In this document: positions 5,383-54,650 of the stretch, piece by piece
Layout of the letters: the number at the start of each line of letters is the position of its first letter
How positions within the stretch are numbered: position 1 is the stretch's first letter
Program-made: the position numbers and the translations under genes
Source of the DNA: Trypanosoma brucei
Lineage: Eukaryota
Length of the DNA: 64,000 nucleotides
Reading direction: 5' to 3'
Assembly: GCA_000002445.1 (NCBI GenBank)
Contig: CM000207.1
Location: 2,688,001 to 2,752,000, forward strand
Notes under the pieces: generated by a model
Seen by the model: only the letters and a program-made list of their open reading frames with translations
What the model was told of the DNA's origin: nothing
Databases searched by the model: none

Positions 5383-5412
5383 AGGCTTCTGCTTCAAGTT
5401 CAGAGAAGGAAG

Positions 5413-6741
5413 GTGCGTATCAGACTGCAATTTGTGTTTGGCCATTGTGGCGTGAAACGGAATGAGTTTTGTAATGAAATGGCCAAAAAGGCCGCTGATT
5501 TACCACAGTTGCGAGACACATGGATCCCCGACATCATTGCTTATGCGAAGCGAGTGCTTAGGTCGGAAGAAGTCCATGAGAACACTCATAGGTTTGGTAT
5601 CACGGGCAACCACTTTCCAACAAAACATAAGGAAGAACTGACGAGGGAAGAAGAAACGGCACTGGCACGCTTTCGGGTTGGGTCTTCAAGACACTATGGA
5701 TGGATGTTGCGAAAGATCAACCCGAGTGTGCCTCCACAGTGCCGATGGTATAACCCGCAACATGCAGCGATAGGACCAACAATACAAACAGCCCCAACTG
5801 TTGCGACACGCACTCTTCAGAGAACCTCCGAACCGACCAAATGTACGGAATGTGATGCCACATACCAATGCCGCTCGAGTACTGTAACGCACATGGTAAA
5901 CAAACATGGCTTTGTGCGAGCTGATGCCCACCGGAGGATCAAATACGGCGATGCAACACCCGCAGTGGATATCCCCCCGGAGCCCCCTCCAGTGGTGGCG
6001 ATCGTTCCTTTACTATCGAGCACACGAGTCCTGATGAGACCGCAGGTGCTTCATTGTACCATCTGTGCCTCCAAATTCGCAGTACCAGGCCGACTACTAC
6101 ACCACCTTAGAACAATACATGGCATAGGTAGCGGTAGTTGCCGCGTGAAAAGGGGGCGAGAGAACGAGGACTCAGTGCAAGGAGATGGTAGAGCCCCAGC
6201 AGCGCCAGTCTCTCAGGATACACGGAAGCTGCCGTTTCAATGTGACCTGTGCGAGACGAGCTTCGGTACACGCTCTTCCCGGTCACTACACAAGAAATTC
6301 AAACATAAGAGCATAGTGACGGAGGACGGTACCGTGGTGGTGGTGCAATTCCCTCGTAAGCGTGCCCGTGAAGGAAACGTTGACGTCCCGGGGAAAGGCG
6401 AGGTGCAGTGTGGTGTGTGCCAAAAAGTGCTCAGTTGCAGGGATTCTCTCATCCGACACTGTAAGGCTTTCCACAAAGGTGAGGGAGTCGAGGTTAAATG
6501 CAGCAAAAGCACAAAATTGTGTGCCACTGATTCCCCGCATACAAATGCATCCATGTTGGTGTGCCTGACATGCGGAAGGCAGTGTGCTAGCAAAACTGGC
6601 CTCACCCTACATCAAAAGAAGATGCACGGTATGAAGGTAGAGCGCGCTGTTACCAGCCAACGCGGCGACTGCGAAGAAACGGCGCTGCACCTGATGAGCT
6701 GTCCCGGTTTGAAGGAATTACGTGTCAGGTTAGCTGTATAA
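5413..6741 (+). CDS. ingi polyprotein C-terminal portion (same frame as 2044..5382, separated by one TGA): end of RNase H plus four C2H2 zinc fingers
   Basis: Same reading frame (positions 1 mod 3) as upstream ORF; fingers CTICASKF..HHLRTIH, CDLCETSF..HKKFKH, CGVCQKVL..RHCKAFH, CLTCGRQC..HQKKMH. Confidence 0.85.
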   Translation: MRIRLQFVFGHCGVKRNEFCNEMAKKAADLPQLRDTWIPDIIAYAKRVLRSEEVHENTHRFGITGNHFPTKHKEELTREEETALARFRVGSSRHYGWMLRKINPSVPPQCRWYNPQHAAIGPTIQTAPTVATRTLQRTSEPTKCTECDATYQCRSSTVTHMVNKHGFVRADAHRRIKYGDATPAVDIPPEPPPVVAIVPLLSSTRVLMRPQVLHCTICASKFAVPGRLLHHLRTIHGIGSGSCRVKRGRENEDSVQGDGRAPAAPVSQDTRKLPFQCDLCETSFGTRSSRSLHKKFKHKSIVTEDGTVVVVQFPRKRAREGNVDVPGKGEVQCGVCQKVLSCRDSLIRHCKAFHKGEGVEVKCSKSTKLCATDSPHTNASMLVCLTCGRQCASKTGLTLHQKKMHGMKVERAVTSQRGDCEETALHLMSCPGLKELRVRLAV

Positions 6742-9453: not shown

Positions 9454-10999
9454 CTAATAAGCTAATAAACTTACGGAAGCAGCATCAATCAGAGCCAATT
9501 TATTATTGAAAAGAATGCTGGAATTCTTGCAAGCATTATTTTCCCATTTGCAACCATCTTTACACTCATCTTGCTTTTTTTATCGGAGCACTTTTTGTCC
9601 TCTTTTGGTGTCTCTCCTGTTCCTGTTGATGTGTTTTTCGATCCTGTTTTAGGTTTGTACACATTATTTTCAGCATCACGATCGCATCCAAGTTTTCTGC
9701 ATTCGTCTTCTGTTTTGGCAGTGTGTTTTTCGTATTATTTTTGTGCTTCTAGTTTCTTCTTCCGCATTAAGATTTAGCGTCCTCTACTTTTTGTACTTCC
9801 TCTACGGATGTTTTGCTTCTTGAAGTTTGAATAAGATCATTGAGGCGGTTGCGATCAGTGACGTCTTTTAGTTCCTGGGTCTTCCCGCAGCTAGGATCTT
9901 CTTTTTTTGGGACTTGCGTTGATTTTACACTGTTCCAGATCAAGTTATCAAATTCTTCTTCTGAGCTCCCGTACATTTCCTTGACTTTCTGTGCTATGGA
10001 AGTTGCTTCTACTGGTGAAATTTTAGTCGCTGTTAGTTTCTTGTATATTAACCTGTAGACGTCCAGTTGTAATTCTGCGTCGCTGTGCGACTGCCATGGA
10101 TCGCAGTTGGTGTCGCTGATGCCTGTTTGCGTTAAGGCTGTAGCTATTTCGGCGTCGGCGTGGGCTATTTGTTCGGCCATTTGTTTCGTCGCAGTTGCCC
10201 ACTGTTTGGATGTTTTACCTGCTGGTTTGCCAACCGTCTTGTCTGTTGCCGAAGTTGCTGATGTGAACAACTTCCCCCCTTTCACTGCTAGCTGAGCGGC
10301 GTCAGAGCTGCCTTCGCCACAGGACGCACCCGCCGCACAACACATTGCCGCTGTCGAGGTGTGGTCGCTCGCTGCTGCTGGGTCTTGTTCTATTGTTTTC
10401 AGGTCTAACTTCCACTCCGTTCTCGCTGCAGCGGCTTTGGCCGGTGGCTGTGCTTGTTTGATGTATTCCGAAAGCGGACAGTACTTTGTTGGTATCTCTG
10501 TCTTGCCGGCCGCCGGCTTTATCTTTATAAATTTGTTGGCGGCGCTGATCGTTTTGCCGACGTCCGTGTCTATCTGCATCACTGCCATGGCCTCAAGCGC
10601 TGCAGCTGCGGCTGTCCCTTGTTCTAGGTCAATTATGACGTTGCTTGTGCGATCGCGAAACTGTTTCTTTGTTTCTTCTAATCTTAGTGAACATCGTTCG
10701 TAAAGGTTGACAATCGGTACTAACCGCCCTTTAAACCCCGCATCACTTGCTGATATCATCGCCAGTGGTGCCTGTAGTGAACGAATTTCCACCTGGGTGC
10801 TAGTATCTGCAACCGCTTGCAGCTGTTTTATCGCTTCGCCTGCGTATATAGCGTGTTCCGTGTCGTCCGTGCAATTAGGCGTGCCCTGTGCAATACTGGC
10901 TGGTAGGCGTAGACCGGCCGAAGTGAGGAAAAAAACTAGCCAAATTGACATCTGTAGCCAGTTTGCGTCTTTGTGCCTTTTTTGGTGGTCTCCCGGCAC
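9454..10999 (-). pseudogene. VSG (410-aa N-terminal ORF 9767..10999; C-terminal domain and GPI signal frameshifted, stop near 9454)
   Basis: Signal peptide MSIWLVFFLTSAG, Cys-poor A-type-like N-domain; minus-strand translation of 9454-9560 gives SILFNNKLALIDAAS... GPI-signal-like tail. Confidence 0.75.
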
Positions 11000-13226: not shown

Positions 13227-14796
13227 TTAAAAAAGCAAAAATGCAAGCAAAAGAGGGGCCTTTGTTACAGCAGAAATAACAACTGCTCCTTCCTTAACTT
13301 TGCACTCATTTTTTTCCTTATCCCAAGTGCATTTGTTTTTGTCATATTTACCCTCTTCAGTGGCTGTGCATTCATTCTTTTCTTTACTCCCGTCTTTCTT
13401 TTCTCCTTCTCTGTCAGTTTTGTCTTTTTTGGCGTCGTCTTCGGTTTTGTCTATTTTTTTTCTCGTGTTGCTTGTGTCTCTTCATAATTACGGATCGCTA
13501 ATGCTTTTTCATAGTCGGGGCTGTCGCTTAGTTCACTAATTTGTCTCCTCCACTGCTTTCCGATGCGCCAAAGTCAAGTTTCTGCGACTCGTAAGGCTTG
13601 ACAAATTTTTCGTCTGCAGTTTTCGATTCTTTCCCAAACAGTGACTCAGCTACCGCTTGTTTGTCCGCTGGCTTCGTGGTGCTGGTGGGCTTCCCTGTAA
13701 GAATCAAGTAAGCGATGTCCTGCACTTTCGCGTCCCCTGCGAGATCACTTACCTTCCTTTCAACAGGTCTGGCTTGTGTGCTTATTAGATGTTGTTGGGC
13801 TATACATATTGAGTGTGCTACGTGCTTGGTGCTAACGATATATTTTTTTTCGGGGGTTTCTTCCGGTTTGCAGTCCGTCTCGTCGTCTGGCCAGCCGACT
13901 ATGTGGTTTGTGGTCAGGGTGTATTCCGGCGTGTGCCGGGCAATCGAAAGAATCGCCAGGCCGTGGTCGATGTCGCTAAGGTTGTGGGCTGAGCCGCCGG
14001 CAGAGGTGCAACCTATGCCTCCTGCGGCCGCTGCTGCCATGCTGTCGATGCTGCCTATTGCCCCGATGTGTATTTTCATTTTGGCCAGAGCAAATTCGCT
14101 GTCGGAAACCGCTTTGTAGCTTTTTAGGTCGCCGATGTTCCCTGCAGCGGCTTCGATCTTGCTGTCAACGGAATCATCCTTTGGACACGCTTCGTCCGTT
14201 ACAGCCTTTGATGTTACTGTGGTTGTGCAGCCTCGGCTGCTGCCGCCCATCGCCGCTTGTTTGGTGGCATCCGGTTTTGCTTCGCTCATTGTCGGGTTTG
14301 TCGGTTGTTGAGCGAGCAGTGCTTTTAGCTGTGCGTTGCGCCTTGTTAGTACATCGACGGCTGTTTGTAGCTTCGGCTTTTTGGTGCCTATCTCGTTGTG
14401 AAGTTCTTTAATCGTTGCTTCCGTCAAAGCTGATAGAGTTAGCAGCGCCACCTTCGTCTTGGTGTCGCGGACTTTGCAGGCTAATAGCCTCAGTTTTCTT
14501 TGGTCTGCTGCTAAGTTTTTTAGAGACTGTTCGGCGCCGGTGATTAGGCTGGTATAAGTTGAGATCAGTTTGTCGTTGAATTTTTTTTCGTGGTAGGGCG
14601 TTGTTATATCGGTGTTGAAACTTGAGCCTTTCTTCGGTAGTGCGGCGCAGGTGTTGTATACGATGAGAGCTGTGCTTAGCATTGCTAGAATCGCCCCAAT
14701 TGTGTGACTGACGTTGATTGTGGAGTGCCGCTCCACGAGGCCGCTTATTTTGTGTGTCGCCAAAAAAGCAACCGGGGTTTTTTTGGTTGCATGCAT
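13227..14796 (-). pseudogene. VSG (422-aa ORF 13528..14796; C-terminal 100 aa in shifted frame ending AVVISAVTKAPLLLAFLLF*)
   Basis: Signal peptide IGAILAMLSTALIVYNTCAA, N-domain; GPI signal decoded from 13227-13290 on minus strand; single frameshift near 13528. Confidence 0.8.
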
Positions 14797-19229: not shown

Positions 19230-20389
19230 CTATTTCAAGTTTGAATGGTAGGCAGGCAGCCTTATTTTTTCTTTTAGTTGGCTTCTCAACGGAATGTATC
19301 CATATGCGTTTACGTGGTGCAAAACAATAAGGTTAGGATTTTCTTCTACAAATTTCTCGAGTGGCCTTTTCACATGCATCACAAAATGACAATCTTTCAT
19401 ATCGACCGTCAAAAAGTCCTCAATTTTAAGTTTATTCTTTATAACTTCTCCAACAATAATATCTTCATTGAGTGCTCTAAAATCCATATATGTTTCCAAA
19501 TTTCTGAATTTAATCGTTAACTTTACTAATTTTTTCAAAGGTTTATAATCAACTATTTCCTTCACCACATCCCTGTATAGTGTGAACGCATAACCAATGG
19601 TATGCCATGTAATTTCATTACTAAATTCTTTATAATAACCAACAGCTCTCCCCATATTCAATTTCTCTTGTGGTAATATTTCAAGGTATTGCAAATACAT
19701 TGGCACCCTCATAAATATATCATCATCTGCTTTCATTATATAGGGATTAGCTGACTTGAATGTATAAACTGCAAATTTGAATCACAAATATGTTTTTCTA
19801 CTCATCGTGAGATCTTATTCCCAGCCCCAATTCCTCAACCCTCCAACTTTTTTATTTGCTGTTGGATTCACATCACAAACAGGTAAAATTATAATATCCT
19901 GGTATAACTCTGCATCTCCTTCAACAATTTCTCTGAGCTCGCAATTATTATTTGTATGAGGGGAATGAGCATATACTATAAGCAACTTCCCACTAAAATT
20001 ATTTGACTTACGTGCCAATTCATGGTAACTCTAACAAGTTTCCCTCTGTAGATTCCTTCTTCTGAATCTTTCATCATTATCTATGGAAGATATTCCAGAT
20101 ACAACAAAATAATCTTCAGTTTTCCAAATACTCATAACATCCTGCGAAACAAATCTCATATACTCATCTTCAACAATCTCCAGTGAAATGGATTCACCCT
20201 CACTAAACAAACTGTATAGTACACATATAAAATAATTACCATAGAAATAAAAGATAAACAACTCACTTTTGCATAGATACCTCCCATATGGTTTATAACT
20301 TCCTGTTTTCGTACTAATGAAAACTTTAAATATCTTATAATATCATTGTATAAAACAAAAGAGAGGAAGTTAGTTGCAGCATGATTCAA
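19230..20389 (-). pseudogene. GT31/GT67-type UDP-Gal/UDP-GlcNAc-dependent glycosyltransferase pseudogene (4 frame-broken pieces)
   Basis: TM segment, then SGISSIDNDERFRRRNLQRETC (ExxxRxTW-type motif), then GDAELYQDIIILPVCD, then MKADDDIFMRV (DDD catalytic motif of beta-1,3-glycosyltransferases), spread over ORFs 20156..20389, 20031..20261, 19815..20018, 19230..19736. Confidence 0.75.
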
Positions 20390-25624: not shown

Positions 25625-27181
25625 TCACAAAAGAAGCAATAAGAGAATTTTTTTGACAAGGAAACTCGAATCATTCCACTTGCCTTCAATCCAACCGCAA
25701 ACATTTTTTTTATATTTTGGAATTTCACCTTTGACTGCAGCACATTCTTCAGGAGTTTTAGCCGCACCACACTTATCTGTTGTTTTTGTCTCCTCATTTC
25801 CTCCTGGCCCTGCTTCTTTTGCTTGTTTTTCTACATGTGTCGTATTCAATTTGCAGTGTTCTCGATCCTCGTCATTTTTGCCTTTGCATTCGCAGGCTGG
25901 CCGCTTTGTTTTGCATGGCGCCGCTTTTGTTATCGCTTCGCATTCTTCCTCTTTTTGCTGTGGTTTGGCAGTGCTGGCGATTGCTTGAACTTTCGGTGTA
26001 AGTCGGCTGAAGGCCTGTTAAATTTTCTTATGCAGCTGGAGCTGCAGTTGTAGGTTGAACGCTTGTTCTCTCAGATCCGCCAGCCTGCTTGTTGTCTTCG
26101 TTATTTCAGCATTTCTCCTTTTTTGCTCGGCGATTAGTTCGACTGCTTCTAGCAGCTTTGTTCGCCATGCTGCTTTTGTCAAGACTACCGTGTCGCTTTT
26201 GGCGGTCGTCTTGTAGACAATGCACAGCCCTGAGTTCGATTGTCCGGCACATCCTTGGCTAGCCAGCTGGCAGAATATGATTTTGCCTTGTTTGGGTGTG
26301 CCTCGTCCTAAAAATGCCGCTAGGCTAGTCAGAATCTCGCTGGCAGTAATTTCCGTCAAAGGGCTGTCTGGACATTTACTGATTATGGCTGTAGTATCTG
26401 TGTCGGCATTGGCGAGGTCGGCGTGCGTGCTCTGCGCCGCGGGTATGTCATCCGCGCATTCTTTGAAATTGCCGCTGCCGTCTGTACTTTCTGCTGCTCA
26501 TAAGCAATAAAGCAGCGCTGCTAACGTTTTAGCCTTGGTTGTCTCCGGGGTGTCTGCCACGCAAAGAAGTGTTCTCGTGCCAGGGTTTCCGTTGTTCGCT
26601 TTTAGGTTGTCAAGCGTTAGCTCCGACAGTTGCGTAACCCCTTGGCTGTAAGCCGCTTCTAGCAGTTTTTTTACTGCATTTTCGGTCAGTTTAGAGTCTG
26701 CAGATGCTCCCGATGTTAGCTGCAGTATTGCGGCTGCGTCTTCTTCTGCAATTGGCTGGAGCAGCGCCGATAGCTGTCCCTTCTCATGTTCGCTGATTCC
26801 ATCAATGGCTGCCTTCTTTATCATTGTCTTGCTTTCTTTTTCCTTGTCAAGCTCATCTTCCGCTTTAGTCCAACCGTCCCATCGCAGTTTCCGTATTTCA
26901 TCGACATTTTCCCCCTTGTTGCTATATTTGGGCCTCTCCTGACCCTCGTGTGGTTTTTCAAACTTCTTCCGCCATGTGTCGTCACTTAGTGTTGCATTCA
27001 GTTTGAGTATCTCCTGAAAGTCAGCGTCTGCTGTGCCTTTTGAGGCTAACTCCGGGGTTTTGCTTGACGGTAATGCGACTGGTGCACAGAGATCTAGAAA
27101 AAGGTTTCCGTTGTCCCCTGCGTTTATAGATCGCACCGGTCGCCTTATTAGTACCACCGTCGCAGCAAACGTTAGTAACAT
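25625..27181 (-). pseudogene. VSG (pieces 26498..27181, 26018..26359, 25625..25849; GPI signal SSFLVKKILLLLLL)
   Basis: ORF track; B-type-like N-domain motif ILKLNATLSDDTWRKKFEK. Confidence 0.8.
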
Positions 27182-27435
27182 TTTTTATTAATCATTATGT
27201 TGCTATTACGCGTTGCTATTGTCCTAGCAATGTTTGTTGGATTTAAAACGAGCGTTTGTGACGTTACACCGCAGGAAGTTGGGCTACGCCACCATTTAGT
27301 AAGGGGAAAAGACTGGGATGCGATCTGCTAGGGTCTCAGTTTGTGAGCGGTTTTTTGTGGTGATTTTTACAGTTTCTCAGGCTTAAACCAATCCTCTCCT
27401 TTAAAATCATCACCACCAATACCGCAATATTCAAA

Positions 27436-28340
27436 TTACGACTTACCCCCATCTATTGTGTAACATTGAATTTCTCCCAACTCGTCAGCGGTAAGTTTTC
27501 TTCCCTTAAACTCCACATACCAACTGAGATTTTTCAAAATTAATTTTTCCCTCTCCTCACACGCAAATGCTTGCTCTGTTAATTGAATGAATAAATGGAT
27601 CCTCTCTAAAATCACCATTATTTGAAATAGCAAAACATATCTCTTCATAATTCAGTTCAATCATTCTCTTACTCAAAAAACCCTGTAAAACAGCTTTTTT
27701 CTGCAAAGCAGTTCAAATCGGTAAGGGCTTGTAAATGCTTTGATCACACAACCATTCACTCGTTATTTACTGCAAGCGATTTCTCATACGCAAATTCAAA
27801 AATTTTAAATGCCTACACTTGTGCTATCACACCACCACCCTTAAGATAGGGTTTGCCACTAGGAGATGATTTTAGCAAATGAGGTAAATATTTATCCTCT
27901 TCGTTTCTGTAGCCCACATTAAAAAACAAATAACAACACAGCACATGATATTTGTGAACATGCTTTTCACTAAACTTCTTTTTATTAGTTGCACCATTTT
28001 GTATAAAATATCCCACAGAAGTTTCATGCTTTTGTTGATCAGCAACAATAACATCATACCCACCCACAGTTTTTAAAAAATCCTCATTATTTTCATCATG
28101 CCTTTATCAATATTCCATAACCCATCTAGGTCTTTTTACATGACTATACAAACCTCCCATAGCAATTGTAATAATTTCAACATGGCTTAGTTTGTCACTC
28201 AATATGAGCCTACACCATCCTTGAGTTGCATGAGTTTGAACGACAAACACAAACACTATAGGCTTTTTAGTATAATTCACTGACACATTGTTTACGTTAT
28301 TCATTTCGTTATCTTGAAGAGCTTTGAGCATAAAAACACT
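27436..28340 (-). pseudogene. Fragmented copy 1 of an unassigned conserved array-associated protein family (motifs VVQTHATQGWCRLIL, IAMGGLYSHVKRPRWVMEF, HLDGSDVIV, TSECYAPQL)
   Basis: ORFs 28107..28331, 27813..28067, 27436..27648 minus; paralogous to 36390..37340 and 51600..52340. Confidence 0.6.
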
Positions 28341-28601
28341 AAATGTGAATACAATCGTGATAATGAAATTTTCAAGATATAAAATTTCATTACCTTATAT
28401 ATTTAAAAAATTGGAGGGTGATAAAAGAAAAAACTTTAAAAACTTGATTAAACTACTTGGTTGCGGTTCAAAGATTCTTTATTAATGAACATTTTCTCAA
28501 ATATATAAGTAAATTCTTGATTTTGTTATGATATATATTTGTTAAAGAGTATATGCTCAGTTTTTGCAACTTATATTCGGCACTGATCAATTGTTTTTGT
28601 A

Positions 28602-29700
28602 TTATAATTTAACTCCACACTCATACCTACTGTTATACGCTACACGTATTCCGGTGCTCACTTCTTTTCCTTCGCTGGCGACGTTTTTGACGCTGAAACA
28701 TACTCCGCCACTGGTTGTGCCGTCGCAGCTGTCACCGTCACTGGCTCGCAGCAGTGGCTTCGGCGTGTGGACCCGCAGCAGTCGTTCGATGGCTTGCAGC
28801 CGCGCTTGAAGCTTTGACCTTGTTAGCTGTAGAGGAGGACGGCTATGGCAGTATTTGGGGGGCTCTTGCAGATTATTGTCTGTTTCTACCGTGTTGTCGT
28901 TGGAACATTGGGTGCTTATCTTCACATTTTTTCCTCATAGTTGATCTGCACCTGAACTTGATCCGCGGGCGCAGACACAGGCGATTGGAGCGGCAACTGT
29001 TTTTACCCTGAGCGAAGCAGCATCTCCGCGGCAGCCGTGACCGAAGTTGGTGCCCCCGGTGCCGAAAGCCGTGTTTTCTGCTGCTGTTTGTTTGCCCTGC
29101 GTTGGTGTGCCGTGAGAAGCTAAGTTCAGGTTTTTTTATTACTTCTTCGGTAAATTGGTTTATTTGGGACACTAGGTTATCTCTGGTTGTTTTGAGCTGA
29201 AACGCTGTTTCGGCTGCTTTGCGTACTTCCGTTTGGAATGCTAGAAGTTGGGCTTTCGGCATGCTTCTGGTTTTAAGGTTTTTAATGTCTTCCATGTTCG
29301 TCCCTTCGTGCACTTCGGTTACTGCTTTTATCCAGTGTGTCCAATATTTATCCCAATCGTCGTGGCCAGAAATTGTTTGTGGTTTTGTTCTGTGGTAGGG
29401 TTTCTTGTTGGCGTCCTCTACGAACATCTTTAACCACTTGGTATCGGCTGTATATGTGTTGAGTCTCTGGGTTTCGTCGTATTCTGCCGAAGAATCTGAC
29501 GCAAAAGTGGGGAGCGTCAATGGGCCGTCTGCTAGTGCCATTAATTCGCATAATTGTAAGAAAATTTCGGCATTATCTCTTGCTGCTACCGCGGCCCGTT
29601 TCTTTGTGATGTGCATTGTTACTAGAATAACTAAGTGAAGGAATCTGTCGCTCATGGCGGTTGGTCTTTTCGGTTGTGCGTAGACTGATAGAAAGTTCAA
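28602..29700 (-). pseudogene. VSG N-terminal domain fragment (275-aa ORF then degenerate tail), 3'-truncated
   Basis: ORF 28873..29700 with leader and VSG-like N-domain (DGPLTLPTFASDSSAEYDETQRLN...); no recognisable C-domain or GPI signal downstream. Confidence 0.6.
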
Positions 29701-30479: not shown

Positions 30480-30680
30480 TTCCGTTATCACAACCATACT
30501 TATAATATTATCATATACAAAATAGCAATACTCTCCTATTATTATCATTGTTATTATCTTTATCACTGTTATTATTGCTGCTCTTATTATAATATTAGAA
30601 TATACATACTTACACAGTTTTCTACATTTATACTTACTATTAGAGCCCTCACTAATATAACCCTATCTAATACGCATAAA
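30480..30680 (-). repeat. 70-bp repeats (2-3 tandem units)
   Basis: CTCTTATTATAATATTAGAATATACATACTTACACAG with TTATTATCATTGTTATTATC triplet runs. Confidence 0.65.
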
Positions 30681-32498: not shown

Positions 32499-33459
32499 CG
32501 CAATAATTCCTTACCGATTTCTTACAGTCGTCTTTTTCACAGTTTGTCACTGTTTCTTCCTATTCACTCAATGAAGAAAGCATCGTGTTTTGTGTTAGAT
32601 ATGTAGGGTGCCCAGCAGTTGGCCACATGTATTCAAAACATTGGTATATTAAAGGGGTGCCATCCGGTTGATTCCGGCACTGGCAGTCAGACCGCTGCCT
32701 CCATGATTCGTTCTGTTTTGTCAGCCTTTACTTAGTTGAAAAGACACACAGGCTCGAAAGTTACTACATTACATCGCCCAGCTCCATTACATAAATATTT
32801 TGCCATTATTGTGTTATCATCATATCTATATCACAGCACAATCACTCACCCACCCATTCCCGTTGTCCCTGAAAGCTAGCCCTATTTTTCACTAGCTGTT
32901 CCAAAATTCCCACATGCACTTTATGAGCTGCCGTGCCCAGTATATAATTCATAACATTTGATCCACCACCAGAAAAAAACTACACTTGCAATTATCTTAG
33001 CAGTAACATCTATCTAATTTTGTGTAAAATATGGATCACAACCTCCTCCGGTATCATTTCTTCCTGCGCCTTGCGTCACTGATGTTTTTGTTTTTTATTT
33101 ACTTTCCTTATTTTCTCCTACTGTTTATTTCTGCGCATAACGTAGCGACTCTATTTTCCCTATGCGCTGCACCACGTCTTTCCCTGATTATCCCTATATC
33201 ATAACCTCTTTTTTTCATGAAATCCGTACTCATATCTGTGTTTGAAAATGCACATATTCCATCTCCATCTCCATTTCCCCCCCTCTCTTTCTCTCTCTGT
33301 ATCTTACTACATTCACTCTAAAATAATATTACTCGTGCTCTTCCACTTCGTTTACACACTATCCAAGTCACTGACTTACTCTCGTTGAAACCTTCATATT
33401 GTTTTTGGTTCTTCTGTTTTGGTATTTCATTTGGTTACATCACAACCATTTTGCTAATA

Positions 33460-33520
33460 TTAGTATATACACTCACAACACTTTCCTATTATTATAATTT
33501 TTATTATAGTCTCAATTAAC
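33460..33520 (-). repeat. 70-bp repeat unit
   Basis: ATTAGTATATACACTCACAACACTTTCCTATTATTATAAT. Confidence 0.65.
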
Positions 33521-33765: not shown

Positions 33766-35207
33766 AGCAAAATCTTTAAAATAGTAGCAAACTTATAAAG
33801 ACAGCAGAAATAATGGCGAAATTATTATTGAAGAAAATAGAGGAATCTTTGCAAGTGTTTTCTTCCCATTTGCAATCCGGAGATTTGCATTCTTTTTCTT
33901 GTTACCTTTGCATTTTTCTGCTGCGTTTGTCTGCTCTTTGACTTTAGTTGCGTCTACTTCGCATGATCCATCTGTTTCGGTGTTTCCTTTCCATTTGCAG
34001 TTAGCCTCTGTGCAGGCAGTTTTGTTGTTTTTGTGTTGTTAGCATTCTTTGGCGGTTTTTTTTTCTGGTATGCTGGTTTTTTCTTGCATTTGTTCTCGAG
34101 CTTGTGGTGATTCGCTGTAGATCAGTGATTGAGCTTGTAGCCGTTTTGTTCTTATTCTGTCTGCTGCTTGTTGGCGAACCTGTACTGCTTTTTCGTGGGC
34201 TCTTAGGGCGGTTACTTGGTCGGCTAGCTGATGTAGCCACGGGATGTCTGTGTATTTTTTGCTGCCGTCGCTACCAAGGTCTGTGTATTTTACACACATG
34301 CCGCAGTCTTGGCTTCCCGTGCATTGGCCTTTGTTGTTTTACCAAAGGTCGCCGCTCCGTTTACGCGCATGATTAGTTTTGTGATGTGCAGTAGCTTCGT
34401 TGCGAGTGTATCCGCCGTAATATGGTGTTTTGTCTGTAAGTCACATAGTTTGACTGCTTCAGATATTGCTGCCGCGGCTGGATAGTTACTGCTTCCTGGC
34501 CACGTCTGGGTGGTCCCTGTGACGTACTCACACGCGTTGCCTTCGTTGCTGCCTGCGCCGTTCTGTCTGGTGCATATACATAGCAAAGCTGCTGTGACTG
34601 TTACGGCTTTTTTGTTTTGCGTGCTGCCTTCGCACACTGATTTTGGCCCGGCGACGGTGGCTGCCCCCTTGAAAAGTTTGCTTTCGTCGGAAGGAGCGTC
34701 GCTCCAGGTTTTGTCGCCGTAGAGCGCCGTGTTTAGCTTTTGTTGTAAGGCGCTGTCGTTTAGCAGATTTTCTGTCGGCGCTGCTTTTTGCATGTGTTCG
34801 TTGGTTGCAGTTGCCTCGGCCGCGTGGCGCTGGACAGGTGGGCGGATTGCCGCCTCCTTCTCTGTGGTTATATCTTTTAGCTTGTGCTTTGCCAGTGCAT
34901 CTTGTTGCCCGTCCGGCTTGATGACGTTTAAAGCAGCTGCCTGCCATTTGTTCCATCTTTCTTTCCAGTCCGGGTGTTGCCCGAGCTCGTCGTCTGGGAA
35001 TGCGCGTATTGTCTCCTTGTTGGTTTTGTCTCGGAACAGGTCCAGCCAAGCTTGGTCTGATACGCTCATATTAAGCTCTAGGATGTCGTCCAAATCCGTG
35101 TTCTGAGTTGGGGGCTGAAAGGCTAGTGTTGCCCGCTTGTTCCCTAGTTCAATCAGCCAACAGAGCGCCCATCTCCCTGACGCTGTCATCTTTAGCGATG
35201 TTGGCAA
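33766..35207 (-). pseudogene. VSG (N-domain ORF 34290..35207, middle 34039..34299, C-tail SIFFNNNFAIISAVFISLLLF*)
   Basis: ORF track; B-type motif ILELNMSVSDQAWLDLFRDK; GPI tail decoded 33766-33830. Confidence 0.75.
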
Positions 35208-36389
35208 ACGCCCGGCTGGTAATTAAAAGCAATGCCACTTTCACTGAGATTCTAAAAAGCCACCGTGTTGGCATACTCAAATATATCATTTGTCTGACTC
35301 TATCTCAAAATTTCCTGAAAGAGAATGAGCTTAGCGTTGTTGTTTTTAATGAATGTTTCACTGTTTGGTTTGAAAACATGCTGAATTACAGTAGGTGTTT
35401 CCGCGCAGCTGAGCGCTTAGTTTGTAGAATATTGCTGGCTTGTCCCTTATTGCTTTTGGAGAATGTACCATTAAAATCTTGTATGCTGCAGGTAACTACT
35501 GTTTGTAAGATCTAGGTTGCTCGGTGAGTACTTTTAGCCGTTGGTGTATGCTGCTTTTTCTACATTTGTAAGGATGTCACATGCTGCTTCCTTCGACGGT
35601 TCATAGTCTTCGCTAGAATTACGGCTGTGGTTCTTTTTGTGCCTCTGGGAGACTTCTTTCGACCATTCCTTTACTGCTGCCTTTTTTGTTGCTTGTTCCT
35701 GTGTGTCTTGCTGGTGCCTCCATTTTTGTTTTTAGTTAGGAATAAGCTGCGTTCGTCAGGTTGGAATTGAATATTGGATTGAGAACGTCGGCTTTTTGAT
35801 CGAATGTTTTGTCGAGTCCTCAGAGTCGTTTCGCTTGTGCATAAGTATAAATTCAACATGGAGTCGTGAACTCCGCGGTTTTTGGGGCCGTGGTGTTTGC
35901 CTACTCTGTTAGTTTAGGTTTAAACGCAAGGGAGTTTTATATGTTTATTATGTTGCCTTTGAAATATTTTTGAGCGTGTCTGATTTTTTGACTTCGAAGT
36001 AAAGACCGTTTGGTTAAGTTCTGTGTTTGTCTGTGTCTGAAGAAAGTATTTAGTGTCGAACATTTGGCAATGAAGTTTCTTGCGACCTTATGTTTCTGGT
36101 TTTGTCGGTTCAACGTTGTTTAACAGGCGACTTGTTCTTTGTCACCATGTTGTTGTTCGCTGCGGGCCTCTTCGGTCGTTGGCTTGTGCAAGGTTCTGGG
36201 TCGACTGTTCTCGTTACGCGGCCTCACTGGCTGTTGCTAGCACTGGCTATCCGGCGCCGTTGCGTTTTCAGCTGTGGGCTGTTGTTGGCACAAGTAATGG
36301 CTTGTCGGCGGCGGGAATTAAAACGCGCGACACTTTATGAAGAAGGAACAAATTTGTATTCTTTGGCCACTATGCAAAAGACTGCCATA

Positions 36390-37340
36390 TTAGAAGGCCA
36401 ATTTCCCTCGTTTAGCGCAATATAGAGTTTTCTCCAAATATCTAGTGTTAAATTGTTCTCCTTTCAACTCTTTATACCAAGTAAGATTTTTCACAATTAA
36501 CTTTGCTTTCTCCTCCCATGCAATTGGTTGACCCGGAAAATGAATGAATGGGGCTTCGTCAATCACCCCACTATTTGGAATGGAAAATAAATGTTCCTCA
36601 TAATCCAATCCAATCATTCCTCTCTTCAAGACAAATCTCTGTCCAACAGCTTCTTCCTGAATTTCAATCCATATTAACAGAGGCTTTGAAATGCTTTGAT
36701 CCGAACACCACTCCTTACTTCCCTTTAGTAACTCTTCGAATGCATATTCAAATTTCCCAAATGCCCATACTCTTGCTACCAAACCACCACCACTAAGATA
36801 GGGGTTTTCTACTAGGAGGCGATTTCAGCAAATGCGGTAACTTCTTATCCTATTCTTTTCTGTAACCGACATTAAAAAACCAATAGCAATCTCTCTACAT
36901 GCTCTTTGTGATCTGAATTCCTAACCAAATCCAACTGAGGCGCATAACACTCTGATGTTGTCATGAATATAATAGGGGAAATATGCTTCTCTTTTACTAT
37001 ATCTTCTCCACTAAACTTCTCTTCATTTTCAGCAGTATTCTGTATAAAATATTCCACAGAATTTTCATATTTTTCTCCGTAAGAAACAATAACATCAGAT
37101 CCGTCTAAATGAATTAAAATATCCTCATCACTTACATTCTGTTTTTCTAAAAATTCCATAACCCATCTAGGCCTTTTTACATGACTATACAAACCTCCCA
37201 TCGCAATTGTAATAATTTAAACATTGTTTAGTTTGGCACTCAATATGAGCCTACACCATCCTTGAGTTCCATGAGTCGGAACGACAACCACAAAGACTCT
37301 CGGATACTTAGTAATATTATGTGTTATATTTTCCCTGTAT
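36390..37340 (-). pseudogene. Fragmented copy 2 (most complete) of unassigned array-associated family
   Basis: ORFs 36872..37201 and 36390..36782 minus plus upstream piece ...VFVVVVPTHGTQGWCRLILSAKLNNV decoded manually; stops between pieces. Confidence 0.6.
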
Positions 37341-38099
37341 GATGTTGAAGAGGCATTGATCTTAAACACAAAAAATGTAAGAGCAGCGGTAAGAGTAAAG
37401 TTCTCGAGTTACTAAATTTTATGACTTAATTTACCTTTTAAATTTCAGAGAGTTGTAGGAGAATCATAGAAAACTTATGAAAAGAGTTAAGATTAACCAA
37501 TAATGTGGTTAGTTAAGGCAACGCTGTGTAGGTATATTGTCAATTGTTCCATATTGTTATGATAGATGTGTTTATGATTGTATGCTTAGTGTCTGCACTT
37601 CGTTTTTTTAGTGCGCATACATTGTTTTTCTATTTAGCTTCAACCACACAAAGACCTTTACGCTAAATGCTTTCATCTATTCAGTAGACTCACTTTTCCA
37701 CTCCATGCATTGTCATATGAATGAAAATAGCTAGTTGTTATGGTTATTGGTTCAGAAATACTAAGATTTCTGCTGGTGGATGCGTTACCTCCAACAATCA
37801 TCTACTTTTATCATGCACTTTCTATCACTTTGGATACGTCAGAGGTTCCATTTTCACTGAGCCTGGACTCTGTTTCTTCCATATTGTCCTTCCATTATCT
37901 TGTTTATTATAATTCCAATATTAATATTTGTTTTTGAAACTGTGCATTTTCCATTTCTTTCTCTTTATCTGCATTTTTTCTTTCTTGTGAAAATATTCCT
38001 GTTCCTCTTGCACTCACTCATGCTCACTTATACTCACTCAGTTTACTCCCTTTCCATTGTAGTAAGTGATTTTATTTTGTATTATTATCATTATCATTA

Positions 38100-38250
38100 A
38101 TACTTTTATGAAAATAGTAGCTTATACATACTCACAAAACCTTTTTCCAAAAATAATTATTATCATCTTTTTTCTTTACAGTTACTATTATTACCATTAG
38201 TCTATCCTAGTATCCATGAAATAAACGGAATAAATCATATTATAATAGAA
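38100..38250 (-). repeat. 70-bp repeat region (degenerate)
   Basis: TTATCATTATCATTAATA...ATACATACTCACAAAACC. Confidence 0.45.
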
Positions 38251-42756: not shown

Positions 42757-44436
42757 TATTTTTTCTATTTCTGGCTTATTGTTCGTTGTGTGTTTGGCTA
42801 TGTAATAGCTGCGACACGATGGTTCTTAGATTGGCACGGTGACGTTGTTTCTTCTGTTTTTCTGGCTTATTATCGTTCAGTTGGGAAAAGGTTATTAGAC
42901 TCTGTTTGCAGCTTGTGGAGTGCAGCCCACGCCGCCGCTACAGCTGCTGATAAGCTCGATATATTCGGCTGTCAACGCTTTTCAGAAGCAGCCTGCTGTG
43001 CCACCGAAACCGCATTCTGGTAGCTGCTTTCTTATGCGATCACTTAAATTTACCGTCTTGAATTAAAAAATTTACTAACATCAATTATTTCATGTCCAGC
43101 CTCCATCCAAAATTTTTCCATATTTACCAACACAATATTGGATATCGATTCAAAATTATATCTAAAGCACTCTCCTTGTTTCTTCTCTGCACATTGTGAT
43201 TGCATATACCTCCTTATTTTTTATAGTTGTGATTAAATGTATTAAAACTTCTTCTCGGTCAGGTTTCTGACTATTCCAACCATATTTGACACTCAGAATC
43301 TCACCGTTAAAAAATTTCTTGTACTAGTGCTGCAAACATCTGCGTTATTTTCCGCGTCAATTTTGTTTAAAGGTAGTTTGTAGATCTGTCAAATTTGCTA
43401 TCGATCGCCTCTTTGCCTCGCGTTCTCGAAGTATTGCAGCTGACAGCCTGTCGACTAAAGTTGGTACTAACATTGCTACGCACGGCATCAGTCGCCCTGA
43501 CGCAGATCCTTGGCTTTCGCTGCTTCTTCAGACTTTGTGGTTGCAAATCTTTTAACACAAAGAGTTTTTAACAAGTACAAACTAACACTAGCTCTTAGTT
43601 GTATTCGTCTCCCCTACTTACTTTCTTCTTTCTCACTTAACGATACAGAAAGCTGCAGGGTCCAGAAATACATATGGGAAGTCGATGCTATTTACTGTTT
43701 CCTTACTGGGTGATTCGAACCACTTGCACTTTTCCATGTTTTTTAGCTTCTAACATGCCAAATCTGCAGCTTAGACTTGCTTTTTACATTTTGGATGCTA
43801 ATACAGAAAATAAAGAAATGTTTGCGCCCATACAATACCTTGCCGATTTGGCTACGTCTCAAAACAACGAAGACTCAGTGTTTCCACACTATCTTCTCAT
43901 TCAAAAACGCTTTGATCACCGATATACCATGCCGGTTTTGACTCATTCTTTTATCTGCTTCTATTTTTACTAATTTAGCGCTACTTTTGTTTCTTTCTGT
44001 AAGTTCAACTGTGGCCATTGTACGCTTGCCTCTGAATACACTTTCTAGCTGTCGTTAATACAGGTACCACAAGCACTTTAAGATGAGTTATACGCTCTTT
44101 ATCTCGTCAATTACCTCCAATGTTGCTATAAGGTACAAAGGTATTATATTCCTTATTTTCCTTTCTTCCTTTCCGCTTTCTGTCACTGTTTCTACAGATT
44201 CCGTAGTTACTCTCCTTAGCTTATACACTGGAATTCGACTCTCCCTGATTATTCTTTCTACAATCTAGTTATGTATAATAATATCCATAATCATGTTTGA
44301 GCATGAACTGCCTATATTTCATCTCCTCATTCTCCTCTTCACTCTTCTACTTACTCCCATTGCATCCTTGGAATTTTTAAAAATGTTTCTATTTATCGAA
44401 TCCACTTCGTACTCTCATTATTGCTCTCATTATAAT

Positions 44437-44660
44437 ATTCGTATATACACACTCACAACACTCTTCTATCATTATCATCATCATTATTATTATTATTATT
44501 ACTGCTCTTATTATAATATTCGTATAGACACACACTCACAAGACTCTCCTATCATTATCATCATTATTATTATTATTATTATTACTGCTCTTATTATAAT
44601 ATTCGTATAGACACACACTCACAAGACTCTCCTATCATTATCATCATTATAGCCCTAACT
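44437..44660 (-). repeat. 70-bp repeats, three tandem units (~80-bp period)
   Basis: Three near-identical units CTCTTATTATAATATTCGTATA(G/T)ACACACACTCACAA(G/C)ACTCT(C/T)CTATCATTATCATCATTATTATTATTATTATTACTG read directly. Confidence 0.9.
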
Positions 44661-49837: not shown

Positions 49838-51419
49838 TGCTTGCAGTCAGCTGTAGCTCTCTTATTTGTTTTTAGTCCTATTTTTTGTTTCTTAAAGTTG
49901 TATGGAAAGAAGACTAGTCAATCATATAGTTTGAGTAGACTTTTGCTGCCTCTTCCAGTCTACTCAAGTTCAAGGTTCGTTATGAGGTAGTGTTACTGCT
50001 TAACCTAATTTGGGGTCCATTGACTTGTACTTCGTGTAGATCACCATTGTTTGCTTGTTATTCTTAGTGAAAACTTGTTCTTCGGTGCTGAAACTTAGTA
50101 TTACCGTCGTGGGGCAGCCGTGGTCGGTTCAGTCATGTACTTTTTGAGTGTGCTACCCGCTGGTCAGTGGAGCTGTCCACACTGTGTACTTCTGCACTTT
50201 TCAAGCGTCTGTCTGTCACACTTCTAGAAGTTAGCTGCACTCACGTCTTAGCGGCGCATGACAGTGACGTTGCTTTGTAAAGCTGTCTTAATCTTTTGTG
50301 GTGAAATTTAGTTTTTACCTTTTTTCCTTGTCACATTTTGTGTGTTATGATGATGGCTGAGCTAGCGGGATGTTGCCTTAGATAAGTTGGAGTCCGCCTT
50401 TAGCTCCTCATTATTTTATTTGATCCATGATGTCATTTGGATTTGAGGTCGGTTATTTTGGTGAGCTTTCTTTCCCCGAGTCTCAAATTCCTCGTGATGT
50501 AGCTGTTCTGTACTATTCCAGACATTATTGGTTTCTTTTCAGTACTCCATTAGAAAAAGCTAAAAAACTACAAAATAATAATATGAAATGACTACTCTCT
50601 GTTTTTTCTCCTTTAAGATGAAATAAATTGCACTTTTTAAAATTATCTCTTATCGAGCCAACTATATTTGCCATTTAAATAAAATTCCCTTCCTTCGCAT
50701 AGCTTTACTCTCGAAATAAACGAACTTCTTGCTTTTTTCGATACCTTAGCCAATTCTCCTTGGTATAAAAACCAGTAAAAGTTACTATTTCAACACTATT
50801 TTGTATGAGAGCACCGTTTTATCGATTTTTTGTCTTTGGTTTTCAATGCATTATTACACTAGCTCCTAGTCTCTTTGAATTTGTTGCTTATTCTGACACT
50901 TCCTCCAATACTAGGTAAAATAGTAATTTGGTTGATTCGTTGTTGCCGCATTTGCTTACTTAACTTCGGTAATAGACGCAACTACAGACAAACGTTTAGT
51001 CTTTTACCTGCTCAAGCTTGTGATGTGTTACTCTGATTCGTATCAAGTGTTTTACTCCATGTTATCTTTCCATTCTCTCTCTTCTGTTGTTGCTTCTGCG
51101 TATAACATGGCGACTCCATTGAGGCTACACACTGGACCATTTTCCTACTTATTTTTCACCATCTATCTTCTTGTGTATGATTATGCGTATTGTCATGCCC
51201 GTGTTGTAAAATTGGTACGTTCCATTATCTTGTCTCTTTCTGTCTGTCTCTATAGCGTTCTATCAACAATATTTCTCATGTGCTTCGTGTCTCTCACACT
51301 TACCATCCTACTCACCCGTTGGCACTTACTTCACTCTTGGCATTTTTTGATTCTATTTATGAAGCCAATTTGGTTTTCGCAAACATTCTTTTATATTAAT
51401 AGTGTACAAGGTCGCAAAA

Positions 51420-51530
51420 ATATACAGTCATTATTATCATTATCATTGTTATTATTATCATTACTATTAATATTACTACTTCTTTTATTATAATATTTGG
51501 ATATGCACACTCACAACACTCTCACCGTTT
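51420..51530 (-). repeat. 70-bp repeat(s), minus orientation, upstream of VSG 48275..49837
   Basis: CTTCTTTTATTATAATATTTGGATATGCACACTCACAACACTCTCACC preceded by TTATTATCATTATCATTGTTATTATTATCATTACTATTAATATTACTAC. Confidence 0.75.
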
Positions 51531-51599
51531 TATACTAAAGTAGAATATGAAATATTATATTTATACACTTATACTGTTATATTTAGTATTTTCAAGCTC

Positions 51600-52340
51600 A
51601 GTACCTATTCAAGAAGAAACAACGGCAAATATGGCAGAGAAGGGCCTTAAGAAGCCAAGAATATTTGTGGTTGTAGTTCAAACTCATGCAACTCAAGGAT
51701 GGTGTAGGCTCATATTGAGTGCCAAACTAAACAATGTTGCAATTATTATAATTGCAATGGGTGGTCTGTATAGTCATGTTAAAAGGCCTAGATGGGTTAT
51801 GGAATTTTAGAAAAACAGAATGCATGTAATAAGGATATTGTAATAACTGTTTGATGGGTCTGATGTTATTGTTACTGACGGACAAAAGTGTGAAGATGCT
51901 GTGGAGTATTTTAGTCATGACAACATCAGAGTGTTATGCTCCTCAGTTGATTTTGCTCATGAACTCAGATCACAAGGAGCATGTGCAGAGATGTTATTGG
52001 TATTTCAATGTTGTAAACAGGAAAGAGGAGGATAAAAAGTTTCCTCATTTACTAAAATCACCTCCTAGTGGAAACCCCTATCTTAGTGGTGAAAATATAA
52101 TAGCAAGAGTCTGGGCATTTAAGAAATTTGAATGTGCATTTGGAGAGTTACTGAAAGAAAGTGATGAATGATTGCCAGAGAAGAGTATTTATGCTACACT
52201 GCTAATTGGTAGTGTTACTTAAAAGGAAGCTGTTGGACAGAGATTTGTTTTGAAGCGAGGAATGATTGGTCTGGATTATGAAGAGAGATTATTTTCTTTT
52301 CCGCATAGTGATAAAATTGGAAAGGCTGTATTTATTTATT
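51600..52340 (+). pseudogene. Fragmented copy 3 of unassigned array-associated family
   Basis: ORFs 51547..51810 (IFVVVVQTHATQGWCRLILSAKL...IAMGGLYSHVKRPRWVMEF) and 51851..52171; further homology to copy 2 continues to ~52340 with stops. Confidence 0.6.
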
Positions 52341-52922
52341 TCACAGGACAGCGAATGGCATGAGAGGAGAAGGAAAAATTGATTGCGATGAATTTAAGTT
52401 AATTTAGAGAGTGAGAAAAGAGGATATTTGGTGTAAAAGATTTGGCAGAAATTTAAACTTATTTGATTGACAGTGAAAAATGGAATTTTGAATATGGTGA
52501 GGTTCGCGGAGAGGTGTCAAGTGATGGGAAGTTGTTTAACGCTAAGAAATTGTAGTTGATAACCGGTGGAAGCAAGCAAATAAGCATGTCTAGGGGCGGC
52601 TAAGTATAATAATAGCGACTCATATGGAGGAAGTACCAGAGTCAGAGCTGAATTAAGCAGTTTTGACTAATGCTTCCTTAATTCCGCAGATTATCAGTTG
52701 TGGAGTAGCAAATACATGGCCATCGGATTCCACATGGAAGAGCAGAGTGCCAAAATCGCAGTCAAGCGCAAAACCACTTCGAACATCTATAGCAATTAAA
52801 TTAAAAGGCAAAACTCAAAACAACCGACGACTGGTTACAACATCAGAAAACTGGAGTAGCTGCAGAAACACAATACAACAACCTCCTTACCTCGCTCAAC
52901 CTAAATACAAGGAGAAACAGGC

Positions 52923-54377
52923 ATGATAAGAGCGATAGCCACAATAGCTTTGCTGAGCGCAGGTGCGGCAAGAGCTACACCGCCGGCAGACGACGACAAC
53001 ATAGCAACGCTGACATTGCTTTGCCCAGCACTGCAGTTAGCGGACGGCAAAATAACATTCGAGCCGACGCGACCGACGACGGCAGCAGATATTAATGATC
53101 TGCTCGCTTTAAACATGTCCCTTGCGGATTCAACTTGGCAAGCGAAATTCCAAAAAGCAAAGTCTGACAAAAGTAGCTCAAGTGACCTGGAACGGGCCAA
53201 GGAAGAAAAACTGGGAACTCAAGCTGAAATGACAGCCTGGGCCACAGCCGCCTAAGCAATCAACTCAAAAACTAAATTAGACGCCGTTCTCAAACCGTAC
53301 GGATACGACTCTACAAACATGTCCTTGCTAGCCACAGCGGCTCAGGAAATAAAACACTACACCGCACTGGCCTTTGACGCGCAGCAGCAATTAGCAGCCG
53401 CAACCATCAACGACAAACCCGATACAGAGTTAAAGCAAGCACTAGACAAAGCGATATACGGCGGGTCAGGCGGATACAAAAACACTAGGACAAAAGATGC
53501 AGGGCTCAACAGCGCCGAACCTCGCCAAACCGCTTGCGTAGAAGCCGCCAACACACACAATCCGATCAAAACAATATCCACCATAGTGGCCTGCATTTGC
53601 GCTGTGAAAAACGACATGTCACCGACGCCGACGGCACCGTGTGGACCAAACAGCGAACAATCGATAAAGTGGGAAGCCACCGGCCTACCACTGGCCGCGG
53701 CCTGGAACAAACTGCGCACAAGGTGCCCAGTGCTAACCGAAACAACGATAACAGCAAGCAAAGTAGAGACCGCGCTGAACACAGCCAAGCAGGCATTTTA
53801 CGGCAAAGGAACCGACCTTTACGTGGGAAAATACGACACCGCCGGTTGCGACGGGTCGGCAACCGGCGCATGTATAAAATACACAAACCAAGCGACAAGC
53901 GGCATACCCAAATTCGACAAAGCGGCGTGGGTCAGCGAGTTAACTACTATCATAACTGCACTAAGAGCCCGAGAAAAAGCGACCGAACGCATAAACGCGC
54001 TCCAAAACCAAATAGCGACAGCAAAAGTATTAGTAGCAGCCGCAGCTAAACATCCGCAGAGCATGAGCGACAGACTAACCGACACTGGCGGTAAAACGCA
54101 AAAACCAGAAGACGGCGACACCATTAAAGCGGCACAAAAAGAAATAGACTGCACATCACTGGACAAAGAGACATGTAAACCCGACGTTGGGTGCAAATAT
54201 AATGAAAAAGAAAGCAAATGTGAAAACGACTCTGTAAAAACTACAACAACTCCAGCCACCACAAACACCACAGCAAGCAATTCTTTTACAATTAAGAAAG
54301 CCCCTCTTTTGCTTGCAGTTTTTCTTCTAAAATTAAAAAATTTAGAATTTAATCTCGAGTTTATTATTTTATTTTAA
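52923..54377 (+). pseudogene. VSG (leader plus N-terminus 52923..53255, stop, then 53319..54377 with GPI signal SNSFTIKKAPLLLAVFLL)
   Basis: ORF track; B-type motif LLALNMSLADSTWQAKFQK. Confidence 0.85.
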
Positions 54378-54539: not shown

Positions 54540-54650
54540 GTTATAATAATAATAATAGGAAAGTGTTGTGAGTGTGTATATACTAATATTATAATAAGAG
54601 CAGTAATAATAATGATAATAATGATAATGATAATAAAAAGAAAGACTAAA
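54540..54650 (+). repeat. 70-bp repeat(s), plus orientation, upstream of VSG 55722
   Basis: ATAATAATAATAGGAAAGTGTTGTGAGTGTGTATATACTAATATTATAATAAGAGCAGTAATAATAATGATAATAATGATAATGATAAT. Confidence 0.85.

Follow-up and report, generated by a model that had tools for sequence, protein, structure and literature searches.

Three diverged ESAG3 pseudogenes in a silent VSG array of Trypanosoma brucei

ESAG3, a gene of the VSG expression sites of Trypanosoma brucei, 'is also in VSG arrays' (PMC3607257). According to Hertz-Fowler et al. (2008, PMC2567434), most bloodstream expression sites (BESs) contain a conserved 5' ESAG3 pseudogene, and BES7 and BES15 have an ESAG3 pseudogene 3' of the 70-bp repeat. 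Subtelomeric copies of the gene are described in the literature as being mostly pseudogenes, and the family to which they belong has been catalogued there as the cell-surface family Fam53. That VSG arrays of T. brucei contain ESAG3 pseudogenes is already known and routine, and has been on record since the papers on the genome and on the expression sites appeared.

The function of intact ESAG3 has been described in a preprint (10.64898/2026.01.27.701950, not yet peer-reviewed), in which the protein is reported to be the long-sought O-glucosyltransferase of VSG: an ER-resident, Mn2+-dependent, UDP-glucose-specific enzyme of the GT-A type that adds the first glucose to Ser/Thr residues of VSG surface loops, and that is required for the O-glycosylation of VSG3. 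The Mn2+-dependent transfer from UDP-glucose onto VSG peptides is reported for recombinant BES ESAG3, and a cryo-EM structure, an octadecameric ring and a GT-A fold nearest to that of LH3/PLOD3 are described as well. The catalytic set described in the same preprint comprises a DXXD motif (D110/D113), H297, a Gly-rich loop (G215-G216), the pair E244/Q245 and a gating tryptophan (W242), and the D110N and W242A mutants are inactive. Nine intact ESAG3 copies are reported there for the Lister 427 strain.

Two further systems serve for comparison. The first, the N-terminal GT domain of human LH3/PLOD3 (PDB 6FXR, 6WFV; PF25342), comes closest in fold to intact ESAG3 among solved structures and has the GT-A fold, the DXXD Mn2+ site and UDP-sugar donors (including glucose) in common with it; the two nevertheless display a sequence identity of ~15-17% and differ in their acceptors (Ser/Thr of VSG for ESAG3, galactosyl-hydroxylysine of collagen for LH3), ESAG3 being in addition octadecameric according to the preprint. 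The second, the GRESAG3 or 'ESAG3-like' proteins (for example, T. brucei XP_823173, T. vivax CCD21437 and T. conorhini XP_029224426), falls within the same Fam53 superfamily and shares D110, D113 and G215 with ESAG3, but its members are ~30% identical to ESAG3, measure 383-411 aa and are encoded in chromosome cores.

The window analysed here (a stretch of 64,000 nucleotides of T. brucei DNA) is a silent VSG array of the T. brucei type, with many tandem cassettes on both strands. The original prediction, made from its sequence, held that three broken genes within these cassettes represent a conserved protein family without an assigned name.

Family identity of the three loci

A tblastn search of the whole window with an intact ESAG3 protein (P0001, E<=0.01) returned exactly three loci, at 27370-28319 (-), 36426-37330 (-) and 51568-52552 (+), with E values of 1e-37 to 1e-143. 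The three broken copies are thus real, well in excess of chance, and lie where they had been placed, at coordinates that were correct and somewhat short at both ends; a custom frame-aware alignment of protein to DNA extended all three to the full length of the gene (~368 codons), as follows.

27367-28390 (-): ESAG3 pseudogene, copy 1; extent from the frame-aware alignment, ATG kept
~36331-37422 (-): ESAG3 pseudogene, copy 2 (the copy originally flagged); extent from the frame-aware alignment, the 3' part (36331-36425) weakly aligned
51547-52555 (+): ESAG3 pseudogene, copy 3; extent from the frame-aware alignment, ATG kept

The reading frames of copy 2 were joined into a conceptual protein of 326 aa, which was used as a search query and matched a single cluster of 368-aa T. 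brucei proteins (E=6.1e-172, 84% identity, 93% coverage). The representative of that cluster, AAA63784, bears the misleading legacy name 'variable surface glycoprotein'; of the 15 entries in the 90% cluster, 12, which come from T. b. brucei and T. b. gambiense, had been submitted under the name ESAG3 or expression site-associated protein 3. When conceptual translations of all three copies were compared with known proteins by BLASTP, the top matches were BES ESAG3 proteins in each case (52-76% identity), and the top eight matches per copy were without exception members of the ESAG3 cluster. The frame-aware alignment demonstrated that every copy is collinear with BES ESAG3 across residues 1-368, with identities over aligned codons of 58.7% (copy 1), 78% (copy 2) and 68% (copy 3). 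This collinearity with ESAG3 proper (CAQ57304, AAA63784/Q26748) takes in the signal-peptide region, the DXXD motif, the sequence TTSECYAPQL, the G-rich loop and the FIHFPGQP histidine motif.

A Pfam scan of reconstructed copy 2 gave nothing above the gathering cutoff and yielded sub-threshold matches to GT_PLOD and PaO alone, so that Pfam by itself cannot name the protein. It is on this point that the idea of a new, unassigned family specific to VSG cassettes draws, since a check confined to Pfam leaves the protein without a name; against it stand the direct hit (E=6e-172) on database entries named ESAG3 and the prior cataloguing of the family as Fam53, and its probability is accordingly negligible. 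The headline of the original prediction fails at this point. ESAG3 (Fam53) had been among the candidates that it named for testing, and it had allowed that an evident match to an already known family, ESAG or GT, would reduce the three loci to routine array pseudogenes; the match now found with ESAG3 is of that kind.

A second possibility is that the copies stem from the divergent, chromosome-internal GRESAG3 lineage and not from ESAG3 in the strict sense. Many GRESAG3 genes exist in subtelomeric and internal parts of the T. brucei genome, and copies 1 and 3 are merely 53-63% identical to BES ESAG3 (BLASTP). An exhaustive HMMER search with ESAG3 recovered 46 representative relatives, the full-length ones being ~30% identical to ESAG3; these, which carry the names 'ESAG protein, putative' or 'ESAG-like' and come from the chromosome cores of T. 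brucei and from T. vivax and T. conorhini, constitute the GRESAG3 lineage. Its representatives (for example, P0017 and P0023) are ~31-32% identical to ESAG3 and longer than it (383-411 aa), whereas all three copies in the window match BES ESAG3 best and are collinear with it over the full 368 aa, which makes a GRESAG3 origin very improbable. The window copies are clearly nearer to ESAG3 proper: collinear homology over the full length, together with a closer BLASTP ranking to BES ESAG3 than to GRESAG3, places them in ESAG3 in the strict sense. An intact open reading frame with a signal peptide is lacking in all three, which are therefore ESAG3 members by descent, and pseudogenes. That the three loci are strict-sense ESAG3 (Fam53) pseudogenes, independently decayed within a silent subtelomeric VSG array, we regard as practically certain. 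The practical outcome is one of correct labels, in that these loci should be annotated as ESAG3 pseudogenes and not as a new family.

Fold of intact ESAG3 and the predicted metal-binding motif

It had further been suggested that the sequence HLDGSD could represent a DxD-like motif, and that an intact paralog probably exists elsewhere. The second suggestion agrees with the existence of 368-aa BES ESAG3 proteins and with the nine intact copies that the preprint reports for Lister 427. With respect to the first, the residues numbered in the preprint land exactly on HLDGSD, FIHFPGQ, SGGGL and EWWSEQ of P0001, and no variation is seen at D110, D113 and G215 across an alignment of 25 Fam53 members. 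By the preprint's numbering, by alignment and by fold, HLDGSD corresponds to the metal-binding DXXD (D110/D113) of a GT-A glycosyltransferase, and the early hunch fits the biochemistry of the reported VSG O-glucosyltransferase. In copy 2 the motif occupies the following position.

37094-37105 (-): codons for D110-G-S-D113 of copy 2 (HLDGSD), from the family alignment and the preprint's numbering

A single ESAG3 sequence gave only marginal matches to LH3 in a sequence search of the PDB (E=0.029), and no deposited ESAG3 structure was present in the copy of the PDB that was searched; the Fam53 profile, in contrast, matched the LH3 GT domain with E=9e-9. A single-sequence AlphaFold model of ESAG3 was unusable (pLDDT 33) and was rebuilt with the 25-sequence Fam53 alignment, giving an AlphaFold2 model of intact P0001 with a pLDDT of 87.7. 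A Foldseek comparison of that model with the PDB returned the LH3/PLOD3 GT domain as the best match (E=3e-9, probability 1.0), followed by mimivirus R699 and then by other GT-A enzymes, and the model of the intact paralog displays a Rossmann-like GT-A fold. The Pfam family PF25342 (GT_PLOD) has a gathering threshold of 27 bits, which is reached neither by P0001 (16.5 bits, E=0.0051) nor by reconstructed copy 2 (12.7 bits); 10 of the 25 Fam53 members match it at E<=0.01, the best with 3.2e-10. Judged by these sequence scores, ESAG3 is a remote relative and not a Pfam-defined member.

The three copies had been held to be distinct from a group of 'DDD-motif' GT-like genes elsewhere in the array. 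One open reading frame of the window is of interest in this connection.

19230-19736 (-): DDD-containing open reading frame of 168 aa, beginning MKADDDIFMRVP, from the listing of open reading frames

This reading frame, presumably one of the DDD-motif GT pseudogene fragments that had been meant, gave no Pfam match at E<=0.001, and its best BLASTP comparison with ESAG3 was non-significant (E=0.067), so that the separation of the two holds.

Lesions and residual catalytic positions of the copies

The frame-aware alignment demonstrated that the copies have been disabled in different ways, as had been predicted, with no lesion common to them. In copy 1, three frameshifts (near aa 19, 239 and 297) and five in-frame stops (aa 95, 96, 222, 254 and 345) are accompanied by an internal deletion of about 30 codons (codons ~142-174) that removes TTSECYAPQL and Y163; among its catalytic positions, D110 has been replaced by G (destroying the DXXD motif) and W242 by L, and H297 and G215-G216 have been kept. 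Copy 2 harbors no internal deletion, and its tblastn blocks are 81-93% identical to BES ESAG3. Its start codon has been abolished (ATG to ATA, 37422-37420), and it has acquired four or five frameshifts (near aa 33, 181, 209 and 337, and possibly 359) and two in-frame stops, both of them substitutions: GAA to TAA at E72 (37219) and GAG to TAG at E194 (36852). Its DXXD motif, G215-G216 and H297 are kept and W242 has become C. Copy 3 harbors three frameshifts (near aa 94, 109 and 150), six in-frame stops and an internal deletion of about 26 codons (codons ~130-157); the DXXD motif is retained, and the remaining catalytic positions include G215G216 changed to EN, H297 to Y, W242 to L and Q245 to K. 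The gating tryptophan has thus been lost from all three (L, C and L in copies 1, 2 and 3, respectively).

The list of peptides that the copies had been said to share is correct in part. The peptides are present, spread over two or three frames per site, but they are mostly the copy 2 versions and do not all occur verbatim in all copies: HLDGSD reads TVGGYD in copy 1, FMTTSECYAPQL has been deleted from copy 1, and VVQTHATQGW is VVPTHGTQGW in copy 2.

None of the array copies can yield the enzyme, since frameshifts and premature stops occur several times over in each, and copies 1 and 3 lack in addition catalytic residues and an internal block (~26-30 codons); glucosyltransferase activity is not expected of them. 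It might be argued that the genes are intact and functional and that the apparent frameshifts are indel errors of sequencing or assembly; subtelomeric arrays are hard to assemble, single-base indels are typical of long reads, and copy 2 (78-84% identical to BES ESAG3) retains most of its catalytic residues. However, many of the lesions are substitutions or large deletions, which sequencing indel error cannot explain. The lost start codon and both stops of copy 2 are substitutions, copies 1 and 3 each contain five or six substitution stops, deletions of ~26-30 codons are present, D110, G215/G216 and H297 have been lost among copies 1 and 3, and the neighbouring VSGs are fragmented in the same manner. 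Such an origin of the frameshifts is hardly credible, and the copies are pseudogenes.

A side observation concerns the active-site stretch at residues 242-245, which reads WWCDQS in most Fam53 relatives and WWSEQS in BES ESAG3. Copy 1 (EWLCDQS, at ~27750) and copy 2 (EWCSDQS, at ~36700) both display the family-typical D244 and not the E244 of BES ESAG3. It may be that an older state of this acidic-polar pair survives in the array copies. As diverged copies, they record older sequence diversity of ESAG3 that is of use for work on the evolution of the enzyme.

Cassette context and history of the copies

The setting of the three copies was established by mapping of 70-bp repeats, which recur at roughly 3-kb intervals through the window, and by a search for VSG domains. 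Many fragmented VSG open reading frames are present, and matches to an N-terminal domain were found in 12 of them (9 B-type and 3 A-type). The only ESAG-family homology searched for and found in the window is that to ESAG3. The features that surround the copies are the following.

26498-27181 (-): B-type VSG open reading frame (VSG_B, E=3.9e-21), starting ~186 bp downstream of the stop codon of copy 1
28873-29700: VSG_B N-terminal fragment, between the 70-bp repeat and copy 1
30485-30642 (-): 70-bp repeat upstream of the copy 1 cassette, from repeat mapping
33455-33507: next 70-bp repeat past the VSG_B of copy 2, from repeat mapping
34290-35207 (-): B-type VSG open reading frame downstream of copy 2 (Pfam VSG_B, E=1.3e-35)
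38080-38204 (-): degenerate 70-bp repeat, the 5' cassette boundary upstream of copy 2, from repeat mapping
51387-51523 (-): 70-bp repeat, opposite in strand to copy 3 and stopping 24 bp short of its ATG, from repeat mapping
53319-54377 (+): B-type VSG open reading frame downstream of copy 3 (VSG_B, E=1e-38)
54543-54647 (+): 70-bp repeat after the VSG_B of copy 3, from repeat mapping

These positions demonstrate the context of each copy, and they qualify the earlier claim that all three sit in the slot between the 70-bp repeat of a cassette and its VSG. The claim is right for copy 2 and broadly right for copy 1; for copy 3 it holds in a geometric sense only, the adjacent repeat being on the opposite strand. 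That repeat (51387-51523) is part of the minus-strand cassettes and signals the point (51387-51560) at which the array switches divergently between strands: every cassette on the left is minus-strand, and every cassette on the right plus-strand. The switch looks like an inversion or recombination junction exactly at the 5' end of ESAG3.

Like BES ESAG3, the window copies keep company with 70-bp repeats and VSGs; unlike it, they lie outside an expression site and are pseudogenes throughout. The closest parallel is offered by the ESAG3 pseudogenes of BES7 and BES15 (PMC2567434), in which a dead ESAG3 occupies the same slot between the 70-bp repeat and the VSG. Those pseudogenes are telomeric and lie within transcribable expression sites, whereas the array that holds the window copies is internal and silent. 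BES alleles, which cluster at >=90% identity, differ far less from one another than copies 1 and 3 differ from them.

The copies are also well separated among themselves. Their pairwise nucleotide identity is 69-74%, and Nei-Gojobori estimates between them give dS values of 0.63-0.77 and dN/dS ratios of 0.32-0.55, in which dN is biased downward by the protein-guided alignment. These values suggest that much of the divergence arose under purifying selection of the ancestors of the copies and was followed by their independent decay. Homology among the three loci is confined to the ESAG3 body, and their flanks are unrelated; they are therefore not recent duplicates of one cassette, and a recent duplication of a whole cassette was ruled out on this ground.

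The array copies are best read as passenger relics, and we infer a history in which remnants of ESAG3 would have been carried along as passengers, relocating and multiplying together with VSG cassettes through recombination in the subtelomeres. The copies would then descend from different ESAG3 lineages that were once functional, as the dN/dS ratios (0.3-0.55) and the lack of homology between flanks would imply.

An alternative is that the dead copies have been kept for a purpose, either as homology tracts that steer the neighbouring VSG into an expression site during recombination or as an archive of donor sequence from which mosaic ESAG3 alleles are made. Expression sites carry several ESAG3 copies. 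According to Hertz-Fowler et al. (PMC2567434), breakpoints of recombination within expression sites coincide with ESAG3 loci, and it was suggested there that these could serve to orient the sites ahead of an exchange. Within the window, the ESAG3 body is, besides the 70-bp repeats, the only sequence common to the three cassettes, and dN/dS ratios of less than 1 imply that the copies stem from separate functional lineages. However, copies that are 69-74% identical to each other in nucleotide sequence and differ by many indels should recombine poorly by a RAD51-dependent route. In addition, no conservation beyond neutral decay was detected in the copies, and copy 3 faces away from the 70-bp repeat next to it. 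Retention of the copies for such a role is unlikely. A silent archive from which segments are occasionally copied into the ESAG3 of an expression site, or which seeds recombination of VSG cassettes upstream of the 70-bp repeat, seems slightly less likely again; if it were true, the archive would generate mosaic O-glucosyltransferase alleles. Passenger relics remain our preferred reading.

A link between the ESAG3 copies and B-type VSGs was considered and rejected. Class B VSGs have been implicated as substrates of ESAG3, with their peptides serving as acceptors (preprint 10.64898/2026.01.27.701950), and the VSG neighbours of all three copies are B-type; but 9 of the 12 VSG open reading frames with an N-terminal domain match in the window are B-type, so that three B-type neighbours out of three are what chance would give (~0.4).

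Several other features of the array may be recorded. Two open reading frames at 9767-10999 (-) and 13528-14796 (-), of 410 and 422 aa, have a VSG-like composition (Ala/Thr/Lys-rich, with spaced Cys residues) and gave no Pfam VSG match at E<=0.001; they may be divergent VSGs. One mobile element was also located.

2044-6741 (+): ingi-type non-LTR retroelement, with an open reading frame of 1112 aa (endonuclease and reverse transcriptase) followed by one of 442 aa (C2H2 zinc finger)

The only well-preserved 70-bp repeat array of the window lies at 44410-44650 (-) and consists of an 83-bp unit repeated 2.8 times (94% matches), the other cassette boundaries being marked by single, degenerate 70-bp units.
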